This document shows positions 43,791 to 48,560 of a DNA stretch of 64,000 nucleotides, piece after piece. The position numbers and the translations under genes are program-made. Within the stretch, counting starts at the first letter, position 1, and each line of letters begins with the position of its first letter. The notes beneath the pieces are model-generated. The model searched no databases, was not told the origin of the DNA, and saw only the letters and a list, made by a program, of their open reading frames with translations. This stretch comes from Frankiaceae bacterium (GTDB taxonomy: Bacteria > Actinomycetota > Actinomycetes > BP-191). Location: NCBI GenBank assembly GCA_035940575.1, contig DASZER010000043.1, forward strand, positions 130,961 to 194,960, given 5' to 3'.

Positions 43791-45434
43791 ATGGAGACGT
43801 ACGCGCCGGCCGTCTCGGCGTGGACCGCCGCGCTGCTGCGCGCCGACGCGACGCGCCCGGGCGACGCCGCCGAGCGCGCGGCGGACGCGGCGGGCGGCGC
43901 GGCCGAGCACGGCGCCCGGACCGCGCGCCCGCGCCCTGCCGCGCGTGGCCGCGCGGCCGACACGGGAACGCCGCCGTGGGGCTCAGGGCGCGCGCTGCAC
44001 ACCGCCGAGCGGGCCTGGCACGAGCGGGTCCTCGGCGCCGACCTCGGGGACGTTCGGGTGCACGAGGGCGAGGCGCCGGCGCGGTGGGCGCGCGGGCTCG
44101 GCGCGCGGGCGTTCAGCGTCGGGCGCGACGTCGTGCTCGGCAACGGCGCGTACTCCCCCGCGAGCGCGCCGGGGCGGCGCCTGCTCGGCCACGAGCTCGC
44201 GCACGTCGTCGCGGCGCGGGGCCGGGCGACGCCGCTGCTGGCGCGGGTGACGTTGTCGGCGGCCGACTTCGAGGCCATCGCGGACTCGCTCAACGCCGCG
44301 CTCACGAGCACCACGTCCGACGAGGAGCTCGTCTACGTCGCGCTGCAGAAGGTCGCGCGCGACGCGACCGCCACCGCGACGCTCCGCGCGACGTACAGGA
44401 CGCGCCACACGAACGACCTCGACACCGACCTCGCGAAGCGGCTCAAGGGCAGCGCGCTCGCGCTCGCGAAGGGCCTGCTCGCCGCGAAGGGCGGCACCGC
44501 GATCCCGGCCGCGCCGGCCAGCGCCAAGGCGCACGACGCGCTCGCGAAGGCGGCGCACGCCGCGCTCACCGCGAAGACGCCGAAGCCCGAGGCCGTCTAC
44601 GCCGCGCTGCTGCCGGTCGCGCAGAACGCCGCGGCCGCCACCGCGCTGAGGGCGGCGTACACCGCGCTGTTCACCACCACTCTCGACAGCGACGTCACGA
44701 CGCACCTCGCCGGCGCCGACCGGGCGTACGCCCTCTACCTGCTCAACGCGCCCGGCCCGGCGTCGCCCATCACGTCGGCGTTCCAGAGCCCGCCGGGGTT
44801 CGGCACGTCGGCGAAGACGGCGACGATCGCCGGCGGGACGCTGTCGGCGGGGACGAAGGTGCCGTTCACCACCGCGACGGGCTCCTCGGCGTCGGCGACG
44901 TTCGGCTACGGGTACTCCGGCGGGCTTGCGCACGACACGCGGTTCCTCCAGGCGATCTCGCGCGAGATCGTCGTCACCGACGCGAAGGGCACGCGCTCGC
45001 TCTCCGACACCGTGTCGATCGGGACGCGGACGTACGCGCTCACGCAGCCGCCGCCGGCCGCGCGGACCTACAGCATCGACAGCGACCGGTCGACGACGCC
45101 GTTCTTCGACGAGGCGCACCCCAGCTCCGGCCTGCGCGACGCGACGTCGGTCGCGACGTACGACACCCCCTCGCCGATCAAGAAGCTCGTCACCCGCGAG
45201 CTCGCTGCGGGCGCGACGACCGTCGTGTCGAAGGCGCGGTTCGACGTGTTCGCGATCCGCGACTTCGCCCCCGTCCACCACTTCGTCATCGAGGTGACGT
45301 GGACGTTCACCGACCCCACGAGCCTCCCGGCGGCGACCCGCCAGGTCGTGTCGAGCACGGCTGTCACGGCGCTGCCGGCGGACGTCAAGGCGCAGCTCGA
45401 CGCGCAGTACCCGTCGTTCTCCTACATCCGCTGA
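43791..45434 (+). CDS. DUF4157 (eCIS core domain) HExxH protein with annexin-like repeats and unknown beta-rich C-terminal domain; candidate eCIS cargo
   Basis: Track ORF 43716..45434; start uncertain (GTG 43716, ATG 43722 or ATG 43791). DUF4157 signature LGADLGDVRVHEGEAPARWARGLGARAFSVGRDVVLGNGAYSPASAPGRRLLGHELAHVV. Confidence 0.85.
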   Translation: METYAPAVSAWTAALLRADATRPGDAAERAADAAGGAAEHGARTARPRPAARGRAADTGTPPWGSGRALHTAERAWHERVLGADLGDVRVHEGEAPARWARGLGARAFSVGRDVVLGNGAYSPASAPGRRLLGHELAHVVAARGRATPLLARVTLSAADFEAIADSLNAALTSTTSDEELVYVALQKVARDATATATLRATYRTRHTNDLDTDLAKRLKGSALALAKGLLAAKGGTAIPAAPASAKAHDALAKAAHAALTAKTPKPEAVYAALLPVAQNAAAATALRAAYTALFTTTLDSDVTTHLAGADRAYALYLLNAPGPASPITSAFQSPPGFGTSAKTATIAGGTLSAGTKVPFTTATGSSASATFGYGYSGGLAHDTRFLQAISREIVVTDAKGTRSLSDTVSIGTRTYALTQPPPAARTYSIDSDRSTTPFFDEAHPSSGLRDATSVATYDTPSPIKKLVTRELAAGATTVVSKARFDVFAIRDFAPVHHFVIEVTWTFTDPTSLPAATRQVVSSTAVTALPADVKAQLDAQYPSFSYIR

Positions 45435-45438
45435 ACCG

Positions 45439-47155: not shown

Positions 47156-47195
47156 GCCTGCGGTCGGCGGGCGCGTGCGTCGCGTACGTCATCCG

Positions 47196-48560
47196 CTACG
47201 GCAGCCGGAAGAGGTCCGAGTGGCGGCGGCGTTCGTCCGCCTCCGTCGTCTTCCGCGCCAGGTAGTCCTCCCGCATGGGCAGCGGCCGCGCGAGCTCGTC
47301 GACCCGGGCCTGGTCGTTCACGACGCCGATCGACGAGAAGAACGACGCCAGCGCCGTCCGGAACCGCACCACCCGTTCGGCGTCGGTCGGCGCGCCGTCG
47401 ATCGTCCGGGCGTGCTGGTGGTAGAAGCGGATGCCGAGCTGGTTCGACACGATGTCCTCGTAGCTGAACGCCGACTTCGCGCTGTCCTGCAGGAACTTGG
47501 TCCGCTGGTCCTCGTCGAGCTGGTCGAACAGCTCCCGTTGCGTGCCGCGCAGCGTCCGCTCCGCGAACGCGAGGGCGGCGAGCCGGGCCGCGCCGCCCGC
47601 GACCTGCTGCGGCGCCCGGAACATCGGCGTGTTCGGCGGGCGCACCTGGAGGAGCCGCAGCGTCGGGTGCTGCGTCGGCGGCGCGCCGAGGATCACGTAG
47701 TCGCGGATTCGCTGCTGGTCCGCCTCGATGCCGATGCCGCGGCTCGTCGCGGCGTCGAACGCCTGCTGCCGCGTCCGCCCCGCCACCGCGGCGTCCTGCT
47801 CGGCGTAGTCGATGAAACCGAAGAAGTGCTGGCAGTCGATCCACCCGTACGTCGTGGAGAAGACGTAGCGCGGGTGGACGCTCTCGATGCCGGGCCGGTG
47901 GTCGGGCTCGGTGAAGTGGCGGATGAACAGGTGCGTCCAGACGCGCCGCGCCAGCACGCCCGTCGTCACCGTTGCGGGGAAGTTCGTCCGGATCAGCGAC
48001 CAGCGGCGCCGCGTGGGGTCGGACGAGAGCGGGTGCGGCGACAGCGCGAGGATGCGTTCGGCCTCCACGACCATCTGGTCGGCGGTGGCGCGGCGGGGGT
48101 ACGTCGGCTCCCGCAGGATCACCGGACCCGTCGTGCGCAGGCGCCGTACGGCGGGCGCGCCGGCGAGCACCGCGACGTCGGCGTCGTGCTCCAGCGCGCC
48201 CGGGTCGCCGACCGGTCCTGCGCCGCGTTGCTGCAGCGTGTGCACGAGCTCGTGCGCGACCCGGAACCGCCCGGCGTGCGACGACGTCTCGAACATCGCC
48301 GGCGCGAAGAACACGTGCCGACCAACCGTGAACGCGTTGGCGTCGAGCGCCCGCGCGGCCGACGCGGCGAAGTCGTCGGTGTGCACCCGTACGTCGCCGA
48401 ACGACGTGCCGAAGTGCCGTTGCGCCCACGCCGCCACCGGCGAGGGCAGCGCGCTGCCGGGGCCGCGGTGGCCGCGCACGGCGGAGACGGCGCCGGCCGC
48501 GTCCCCGCGCGCCTGCGCCGCGGCCACCCGCTGCGCCGCGCGCGCCGCGTGCACCGTCAC
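47196..48560 (-). CDS. DUF4157 HExxH protein with unknown C-terminal domain; candidate eCIS cargo
   Basis: 454 aa, GTG start. DUF4157: FGTSFGDVRVHTDDFAASAARALDANAFTVGRHVFFAPAMFETSSHAGRFRVAHELVHTLQQ. In the C-terminal ~300 aa (e.g. YGWIDCQHFFGFIDYAEQ) I recognise no family. Confidence 0.85.
   Translation of the reverse strand: MTVHAARAAQRVAAAQARGDAAGAVSAVRGHRGPGSALPSPVAAWAQRHFGTSFGDVRVHTDDFAASAARALDANAFTVGRHVFFAPAMFETSSHAGRFRVAHELVHTLQQRGAGPVGDPGALEHDADVAVLAGAPAVRRLRTTGPVILREPTYPRRATADQMVVEAERILALSPHPLSSDPTRRRWSLIRTNFPATVTTGVLARRVWTHLFIRHFTEPDHRPGIESVHPRYVFSTTYGWIDCQHFFGFIDYAEQDAAVAGRTRQQAFDAATSRGIGIEADQQRIRDYVILGAPPTQHPTLRLLQVRPPNTPMFRAPQQVAGGAARLAALAFAERTLRGTQRELFDQLDEDQRTKFLQDSAKSAFSYEDIVSNQLGIRFYHQHARTIDGAPTDAERVVRFRTALASFFSSIGVVNDQARVDELARPLPMREDYLARKTTEADERRRHSDLFRLP

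Follow-up and report, generated by a model that had tools for sequence, protein, structure and literature searches.

Proteins that join a constant N-terminus to variable C-terminal toxin domains, several of them per genome and mostly without immunity genes, were described as 'PVC-metallopeptidase' proteins by Zhang et al. (2012; PMC3482391), who proposed for the constant domain, DUF4157 (eCIS_core), an autoproteolytic release or releasing-peptidase role. DUF4157 shows an odds ratio of 2614 for extracellular contractile injection systems (eCIS; Geller et al., 2021; PMC8213781) and is the main marker of eCIS-associated toxins (EATs; Geller et al., 2021; Danov et al., 2024; PMC11297309); a function as a chaperone in trans has also been proposed for it, and it is found in effectors of type VI secretion systems (T6SS) as well (Danov et al., 2024). 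Here we describe three DUF4157 genes, designated P1, P2 and P3, which lie next to a complete contractile injection system (CIS) in a stretch of 64,000 nucleotides (the window) of contig DASZER010000043.1 from a Frankiaceae bacterium. By analogy with the characterized systems, we lean towards the view that the three proteins belong functionally to the adjacent CIS, in the effector/cargo class represented by Cgo1/Cgo2 and Tme/Sle2.

In AlgoCIS, Cgo1 and Cgo2 fill the lumen of the tube (Xu et al., 2022; PMC8894135), and it was reported in a preprint that a disordered N-terminus together with Alg15 loads the cargo, DUF4157 being dispensable (10.64898/2026.05.27.728243). DUF4157 proteins of Streptomyces co-purify with or bind spike and tube-initiator proteins (PMC11126660; 10.1101/2025.11.06.686954), and one of them, Sle2 of S. 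lividans, bridges the effector Sle1 to the spike proteins (10.1101/2025.11.06.686954). In S. coelicolor, loss of Sco4256-4258 empties the tube lumen (Casu et al., 2023; PMC10066040). Annexin and M35 protease domains, both of which appear below, have already been catalogued with CIS or T6SS.

The assignment of P1-P3 to this class is supported by the complete CIS operon beside them (Table 1), by the synteny of P1 in the two closest relatives of the locus and by the CIS linkage of P3-like genes in 8 to 11 of 14 loci. An earlier note on this DNA had claimed that the three open reading frames (ORFs) share one N-terminal module, DUF4157, which continues into different C-terminal regions, and that the cluster lies next to an eCIS; these claims were borne out. 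PF13699 matches all three modules with 78-84.8 bits (Pfam gathering score, 22 bits), the modules share 40-42% identity in each pair (blastp E 3e-14 to 5e-12), the regions C-terminal to them are mutually unrelated (blastp E > 0.9), and the strings quoted for the module (LLGHELAHVV, LIAHELTHVLQQ and RVAHELVHTLQQ) are all present, with the correction that VRVH is not common to the three, P2 having VRVATD instead. The link drawn there between DUF4157 and CIS effectors likewise agrees with the literature (PMC3482391, PMC8213781, PMC8894135). No DUF4157 copy beyond P1-P3 was detected by a local hidden Markov model (HMM) among all six-frame ORFs of the 64-kb window, and a fourth, Tme-like DUF4157 gene within the operon was considered and rejected, as this HMM finds no in-operon DUF4157 ORF. 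The window consists of actinobacterial DNA with a G+C content of about 75%, in which genes were called from third-position GC content (GC3); GC3 is of the coding type (0.96-0.98) in all three ORFs, and the products of P1, P2 and P3 are identical to database proteins P0056, P0055 and P0001, respectively.

The genes lie two to five genes away from the sheath gene, within ten genes of the CIS core. P1 and the sheath operon are transcribed divergently, a regulator gene separating them, and P1 starts 1.1 kb from the sheath gene. P2 is located downstream of P3 on the same strand, in tandem and separated by 77 bp, and both converge on P1, the gap between P1 and P2 being 4 bp; P3 and P2 are probably co-transcribed. 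A scan for sigma-70 promoters and terminators, which has low informativeness at 75% GC, found nothing, and NCBIfam and PHROGs scans of P1-P3 and of the neighbours without assignment gave no matches.

This arrangement corresponds to that of PVC-metallopeptidase toxins/EATs (PMC3482391, PMC8213781, PMC11297309) in the constant DUF4157 N-terminus with its HExxH motif, the unrelated C-termini, the CIS-adjacent clustering, the BTAD or GerE regulators nearby and the usual absence of immunity genes. That no obvious immunity genes lie beside the cluster had been remarked before; indeed, no plausible candidate was found among the ORFs adjacent to P1-P3, the neighbours being a small secreted peptide and a secreted, family-less protein of 330 aa. 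Unlike typical EATs, P1-P3 lie not at the 3' end of the sheath operon but upstream of it and in a divergent position, and P1 and P3 constitute whole-protein orthologue families instead of shuffled modules, P3 being conserved like a structural gene.

With AlgoCIS Cgo1/Cgo2 the locus shares the order leader, DUF4157 and differing C-terminus as well as an Afp15-type AAA ATPase gene, and Cgo1 resembles P2 in carrying a second HExxH in its C-terminal domain, a likeness at the level of the motif; for the Cgo proteins, loading into the tube has been seen. Tme (S. davawensis, PMC11126660) and Sle2/Sle1 (S. lividans) also belong to actinobacterial CIS with DUF4157 genes beside the sheath operon, and their links to spike and tube-initiator proteins point to a way in which cargo could be tethered by DUF4157. 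Nevertheless, Tme exceeds 2000 aa and contains transmembrane helices, tape-measure-like coiled coils and a nuclease, a type of protein with no counterpart in the window, whereas P1-P3 are non-hydrophobic proteins of 454-559 aa encoded outside the structural operon; Sle2, in turn, is small and has no extra domain, whereas P3 has one of 300 aa. Sco4256-4258 (PMC10066040) are, like P1-P3, three CIS-linked paralogues with a common N-terminus and different C-termini, but P1-P3 contain neither the transmembrane helix that each of those proteins has nor the ricin-type lectin domains present in two of them.

In the DUF4157 modules of P2 and P3, HExxH is followed by QQRG and, 16 residues past the second His, by E-x-[ED]-A-D, a spacing reminiscent of the third zinc ligand of thermolysin-type enzymes. 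In P1 and its entire family VVAARG follows HExxH and there is no acidic motif at the spacing seen in P2 and P3, P1 also lacking the QQ; judged from these residues, the module of P1 may be catalytically different or inactive. The leaders that precede DUF4157 measure 68 (P1), 35 (P2) and 37 aa (P3) and are rich in Ala, Gly, Pro and Arg, that of P1 being presumably disordered from its composition. A leader sequence common to the three proteins was sought and rejected (z <= 0.33), since the likeness is one of composition only. The earlier suggestion that DUF4157 itself is a loading domain fits poorly with the AlgoCIS preprint, in which the disordered N-terminus is needed and DUF4157 is not, and with the binding of Streptomyces DUF4157 proteins to spike and tube-initiator proteins. 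Neither a signal peptide nor a hydrophobic segment is present in P1-P3 (top 19-residue hydropathy 1.34, 1.26 and 1.11, respectively), and transmembrane segments of the Sco4256-4258 kind were rejected on hydropathy.

The C-terminal region of P2 is related to deuterolysin-type (M35 aspzincin) zinc proteases. PF14521 matches full-length P2 with 31.5 bits against a cut-off of 30, and the C-terminal piece alone with 29.7 bits, a small margin. An exhaustive HMMER search recovered 153 representatives related to this region, whereas a word-indexed homologue search returned zero; the family counts given here refer to 50 sequences, namely the best 49 of these 153 representatives plus P2. Among them, 37 contain DUF4157 and 27 have an Aspzincin_M35 match (best E 1.2e-20), and H295, E296, H299, D319 and Y322 are invariant throughout. 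The family profile matched deuterolysin (1EB6) with E 3.9e-12 over chain residues 3-173 of 177, as well as 1G12 (E 3.6e-5) and 2X3A (E 8.5e-5), while single-sequence phmmer of P2 against PDB yielded low-complexity noise only. In the alignment with 1EB6, HELAH falls on HEFTH, D319-x-x-Y322 on GTEDLGYG and ALDNAESY on ALNNADSY; the flanking G and T of the GTxDxxYG motif are not retained. Because the zinc-ligand residues are invariant and aligned with those of 1EB6, P2 is a credible zinc endopeptidase. Compared with deuterolysin, AsaP1 (2X3A) and T6EC12, an Aspzincin_M35 effector of the T6SS whose toxicity depends on HExxH (10.64898/2026.09.28.754971), the P2 family profile covers the whole of deuterolysin, with HExxH, the Asp ligand and the Tyr kept; P2 differs from the M35 aspzincins in having VRDRAY in place of GTxDxxYG, an N-terminal DUF4157, an extra extension of 200 aa, for which no Pfam match was found, and no adjacent immunity gene.

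P2 is missing from one of the closest relatives of the locus (L005), where two small ORFs lie between the P1-like and P3-like genes and where two other DUF4157 genes with different C-terminal ends are present; in the two arrays in which P2-like genes were located, these genes lie among four to six DUF4157 genes and both arrays are CIS-linked. Based on this absence and on its occurrence in DUF4157 arrays elsewhere, only P2 of the three fits an exchangeable payload. A related CIS locus, L016, has a run of consecutive DUF4157 genes at 4581-15332 (four to six genes across L016, L021 and L022).

The C-terminal domain of P3 presents a different picture. Its homologues form 54 clusters with 50-76% identity, nearly all of them fused to DUF4157 (42 of 48 relatives scanned), and between members from Actinobacteria, Chloroflexia, Thermoleophilia and Alphaproteobacteria the domain retains 52-57% identity (49-57% in the wider comparison over four phyla), with P3-like genes in Streptomyces, Propioniciclava, Thermoleophilia, Chloroflexia, Geminicoccaceae and Bradyrhizobium. 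Many polar residues (R, H, E, D, Q) are invariant and, together with the four motifs RY.FS, YGW[IV]D.QHF, IE..Q and YED..SNQLG.RF, suggest an active site, so that the domain is probably enzymatic. The AlphaFold2 (AF2) model of residues 153-454 has a predicted local distance difference test (pLDDT) value of 90.8 and a predicted template modelling (pTM) score of 0.90. Foldseek returned against PDB a best E of 0.12 with template modelling (TM) scores <= 0.22, the phosphodiesterase (PDE), rhodopsin and pore-toxin rows being noise, and against BFVD a best E of 0.52, no match. The domain has no Pfam, NCBIfam or PHROG match, single-sequence phmmer against PDB was empty, the lone match of the family profile in PDB (CBF-beta, E 0.07) was judged to be due to chance, and Pfam scans of every family member (E <= 1) showed nothing recurrent besides DUF4157.

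Among the 14 P3-like loci, eight are flanked by sheath, tube, Pvc16 or spike genes, in three others the gene directly upstream encodes a CIS-type AAA ATPase, and one is on an incomplete contig. L012, from the cultured strain Streptomyces pseudovenezuelae GGS1, has its P3-like gene next to a CIS. The P3-like gene is the first after the AAA ATPase gene in five loci (L001, where the two overlap by 17 bp, L006, L010, L021 and L022), and it heads arrays with up to five further DUF4157 genes; in a locus from Chloroflexia (L008) it is found inside the structural operon, between the ATPase and tube-initiator genes, and overlaps the start of g206, a gene of the tube-initiator region. Full-length P3 is 54, 78, 49 and 54% identical to its counterparts in L003, L005, L008 and L010, in comparison with 34-66% for the sheath and 39-60% for the AAA ATPase, and among the CIS-linked proteins only the tube protein ranks above it. 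Based on this conservation and on the adjacency to the ATPase gene, P3 looks like a fixed partner of this CIS lineage, be it a conserved effector, an adaptor or an enzyme, and not like an exchangeable, polymorphic toxin. It is possible, and is put forward tentatively, that the domain represents an uncharacterised CIS-associated family whose fold is absent from PDB and BFVD: a fixed, lineage-wide enzyme or adaptor coupled to the AAA+ ATPase that heads variable DUF4157 arrays in at least four phyla. It might correspond to 'Ntox5' (Streptomyces, Nitrobacter; PVC), a bare, uncharacterised entry in the 2012 table of Zhang et al. (PMC3482391) whose phyletic pattern fits. As to the neighbours of P3-like genes, the DUF4157 runs that start with such a gene after the AAA ATPase comprise 10001-20983 in L021 and 10001-17608 in L022, and some members of the L016, L021 and L022 runs add OmpA or Tse3-like domains. 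Beside the P3-like gene of L001 lies a protein of 1985 aa, possibly Tme-like, with DUF4157 near its N-terminus (11553-17510, - strand), and beside that of L008 a protein of 381 aa with DUF4157 at its C-terminal end (8252-9397, + strand).

In P1, DUF4157 is followed by two annexin-like repeats and an all-beta domain. The P1 family comprises 16 homologue clusters, all of them DUF4157 fusions, and its profile matched annexin VI (E 7.1e-8) and annexin XII (E 1.6e-7) in PDB with both repeats in register. Consistently, the AF2 model of residues 154-547 (pLDDT 92) matched annexins in Foldseek (E 3.9e-6, probability 1.00), with 105 matches at E <= 1e-3, the 50 listed being all annexin structures or annexin A2 fusion constructs. 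On P1 itself the Pfam Annexin family (PF00191) stays under its 25-bit cut-off (13.7 bits, E 0.067); it matches six of the 16 family members (best E 2.6e-4), and single-sequence phmmer of P1 against PDB gave only a weak annexin XII match (E 1.8). The four-repeat core of eukaryotic annexins is absent, two repeats being usual among bacterial annexins (PMC3894181). The type II calcium site, a GxGT loop with an acidic cap about 38 residues further on, is kept in neither repeat: in the annexin profile alignment, TSTTSD and AKTPKP stand in place of the loops, and R and H occupy the cap positions. Any membrane binding by P1 would therefore be non-canonical.

The all-beta domain shows no Pfam match at E <= 10 and no PDB sequence match, and Pfam scans of every P1 family member (E <= 1) showed nothing recurrent besides DUF4157 and annexin. 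It occupies the toxin position of the known DUF4157-annexin-toxin architecture, in which annexin is an accessory domain and a toxin domain always stands behind it (Zhang et al., 2012). Bacterial annexin-toxin fusions such as the Haliangium DUF4157-annexin-Ntox3 protein (Kodavali et al., 2014; PMC3894181; Zhang et al., 2012) resemble P1 in the succession of DUF4157, annexin and a C-terminal all-beta domain, and their annexin is viewed as a membrane-targeting accessory. P1 differs from them in that its two repeats both lack the calcium signature GxGT...D/E and in that its beta domain matches no toxin domain in the Pfam-A copy used, in which the inclusion of Ntox3/Toxin_58 was not checked. A Ser/Thr/Gly-rich hairpin is seen at residues ~338-375, and that it marks an aerolysin-type pore-forming domain is speculation. 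Conservation within the family is highest in the DUF4157 module (65-70% identity) and lowest in the beta domain (40-44%), which indicates that P1 evolves as one unit. P1 orthologues are CIS-linked in two of six genomes, and the divergent position of the gene is retained in the two closest CIS relatives (L004 and L005). The P1-like loci are without exception derived from metagenomes or metagenome-assembled genomes (MAGs). In L018 a P1-like gene without CIS linkage lies directly downstream of a cluster of SNF2-type helicase, NYN, DUF1156 and DUF499 genes (1-9655), which looks like a phage-defence island, with a CHAT/TPR protein and a C11 peptidase on its other side.

By analogy with the systems described above, the leader, together with the AAA+ ATPase (35365-37266), would bring each protein to the assembling particle, DUF4157 would tie it to the tube-initiator/spike complex or process it later, and the C-terminal domains would be released on contraction of the sheath. 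P2 would then probably be the classical toxic payload, a protease in a variable slot; P1 would act as a membrane-directed effector, its annexin pair reaching the membrane and its all-beta domain standing in the toxin position; and P3 would contribute its conserved all-alpha domain, probably an enzyme, as a fixed partner of the CIS lineage.

Several points weigh against this interpretation. The leaders of P1-P3 are without sequence similarity, whereas those of the Cgo proteins resemble one another, and membrane binding by P1 is an assumption, as its repeats lack the canonical calcium site. Streptomyces CIS machines act inside the producer cell; by analogy, what is targeted could be the producing cell itself and not a competitor, which changes the meaning of 'cargo'. 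Furthermore, a conservation second only to that of the tube protein is unusual for a toxin, and P3, possibly also P1, can alternatively be regarded as a conserved accessory or adaptor instead of a payload, either a connector or chaperone that, in concert with the AAA+ ATPase and the tube-initiator/spike proteins, recruits variable DUF4157 effectors, as Sle2 does, or an enzyme of assembly or firing, with P2 as the only true toxin. The degree of identity of the P3 domain across four phyla and its rank after the tube are in line with such a role, as are the first position after the ATPase gene in five loci, at the head of DUF4157 arrays, the overlap with g206 in L008, the bridging by Sle2 (10.1101/2025.11.06.686954) and the chaperone in trans proposed by Danov et al. 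(2024). We nevertheless consider it rather doubtful, given that the invariant polar residues of P3 resemble an active site more than a scaffold, that Sle2 is small and lacks anything like the 300-aa extra domain, that distant P3 relatives occur without a nearby CIS, and that an effector conserved throughout the lineage would give an identical pattern of conservation.

The genomic distribution also counts against a cargo role: the two most divergent P3 relatives (L013 and L014; 36-39% identity) are away from any CIS, and four of the six P1 orthologues (L017-L020) have no CIS gene in the flanks that were read (10 kb on each side in L017, L018 and L020; 1.1 kb upstream and 10 kb downstream in L019), so that P1 comes close to an orthologue set consistently away from eCIS, while most P3-like loci are CIS-linked. 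These solitary genes, which sit among housekeeping or defence genes, would be expected if P1-P3 were toxins or enzymes independent of the CIS, exported by another route or acting in the cytoplasm, with DUF4157 as an autoproteolytic 'releasing peptidase' only and the proximity to the CIS as hitch-hiking on the island; the role assigned to the domain by Zhang et al. (2012) and its presence in T6SS effectors (PMC11297309) are compatible with this possibility. It appears improbable, however, because P1-P3 have no signal peptide or hydrophobic segment, the specificity of DUF4157 for CIS loci is high (Geller et al., 2021; PMC8213781), and close relatives have kept the syntenic arrangement with regulator and sheath operon; moreover, orphan effector genes are normal in contractile systems, and the orphan status is judged from flanks only. 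Returning to the view that P1-P3 are effectors or cargo of the adjacent CIS, the 'cargo arsenal' of the earlier note is thus partly supported: of its three alternative payloads, P2 stands in a variable slot, P3 is conserved and looks fixed, and P1 is often an orphan. Undescribed activities had been anticipated in the C-terminal regions, an expectation which may hold for the P3 domain and the P1 beta domain, both without a family, but not for the annexin of P1 or the M35 protease of P2, which are already listed as CIS- or T6SS-associated.

Table 1. Coordinates of P1-P3, their domains, the CIS genes and the adjacent regulator in the window.
Feature	Position	Strand	Description
P1	43791-45434	+	547 aa: leader, DUF4157, two annexin repeats, all-beta C-terminal domain
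P1 N-terminal leader	43791-43994	+	Residues 1-68; A/G/P/R/S/T/E/D/Q/K fraction 0.88
P1 DUF4157 module	43995-44222	+	Residues 69-144; PF13699 82.6 bits, E 2.3e-23; HELAH 134-138
P1 annexin-like repeats, two	44250-44750	+	Residues 154-320
P1 all-beta C-terminal domain	44751-45431	+	Residues 321-547; long strands, AF2 pLDDT above 90
P2	45439-47118	-	559 aa: leader, DUF4157, Ala/Pro linker, M35 aspzincin protease, C-terminal extension
P2 DUF4157 module	46813-47013	-	Residues 36-102; PF13699 78 bits, E 6.2e-22; HELTH 91-95, then HESEAD
P2 M35 aspzincin (deuterolysin-type) zinc protease domain	46054-46566	-	Residues ~185-355; HELAH 295-299, D319, Y322
P2 C-terminal extension	45442-46053	-	Residues 356-559, ~200 aa; kept with the protease in ~30 representatives (full-length matches)
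P3	47196-48560	-	454 aa: leader, DUF4157, conserved all-alpha C-terminal domain
P3 DUF4157 module	48219-48449	-	Residues 38-114; PF13699 84.8 bits, E 4.8e-24; HELVH 103-107, then LEHDAD
P3 C-terminal domain	47199-48104	-	Residues 153-454, 302 aa, all-alpha
BTAD (SARP-type) transcriptional regulator	42934-43743	-	PF03704, E 1e-20; between sheath and P1
CIS structural operon, complete	22407-42690	-	Sheath gene to beta-helix-like last gene
Sheath	40669-42690	-	
gp19-type tube	40173-40667	-	
Pvc16_N cap protein	37263-38387	-	
Afp15/Pvc15-type AAA+ ATPase	35365-37266	-	PF00004, E 6.9e-30
GPD-type hub/tube initiator	33207-34301	-	
VgrG-type OB spike	32722-33207	-	
gp25	32028-32393	-	
Baseplate J	27056-29587	-	
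P2_I baseplate protein	24975-27059	-	

In the CIS operon, the AAA+ ATPase is the presumed cargo-loading motor. The operon also contains two ORFs without assignment between the tube and cap genes and two small ORFs between the ATPase and hub genes, and its last gene encodes a protein of 855 aa with beta-helix-like repeats. An in-operon ORF between the tube-side genes and the Pvc16-like gene (38384-39529, - strand) is extremely rich in Ala, Pro and Gly and harbours a 201-bp tandem duplication (38619-39034; 2.0 copies, 88% match). Its counterparts in L004 and L005 are much shorter (123 and 179 aa, with ~36 residues matching at 57-72% identity), and its length is therefore highly variable; a role in tail length or as a linker is a guess. 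The BTAD regulator recurs beside P1- or P3-like genes in five loci (L001, L003, L004, L005 and L006), and a family-less ORF of 60 aa between it and the sheath gene (42717-42899, - strand) has equally placed counterparts with 52-53% identity in L004 and L005. Directly after the last CIS gene comes a stand-alone response-regulator receiver gene (21560-21916, - strand), and about 13 kb past it a large AAA_16-TPR-GerE (LuxR-type) regulator (6774-9518, - strand); both types have been reported in the vicinity of CIS loci, and these two could take part in the control of the CIS.

Just beyond P3, a small ORF (48692-48976, - strand) has an internal Met that opens a signal-peptide-like stretch followed by a four-cysteine peptide of ~36 aa, and divergent from it a cysteine-rich protein of 330 aa with a signal-like N-terminal segment is encoded (49062-50054, + strand); neither has a Pfam, NCBIfam or PHROGs match. 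The CIS island is flanked on both sides by housekeeping genes. On the P3 side, a DnaE2-type polymerase gene (PHP, pol III alpha, HHH_6), an ImuB-like gene of the IMS family and an ORF of 223 aa (51934-57435, - strand) have the appearance of a cassette for error-prone repair immediately beyond the island; the opposite flank of the CIS carries argS, lysA, hom and genes for a pyridoxal phosphate (PLP)-dependent enzyme (PALP family, thrC-like), an MFS transporter and a GHMP-family (thrB-like) kinase.

The layout of the locus is textbook for the field, having been described since 2012, and the locus is mostly a new example of it; what may be new here are the C-terminal family of P3, with no known fold, a cross-phylum distribution and coupling to the ATPase, and the beta domain of P1. 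To the questions of how CIS cargo is chosen and loaded and of what DUF4157 does, the locus adds no new principle. It does provide three concrete test cases in an actinobacterial CIS: P2 as a protease payload with clear catalytic residues, P1, which could show how cargo reaches the membrane, and P3, which, if it is true that it is a general loading or firing factor, would matter for the engineering of CIS as protein-delivery tools.

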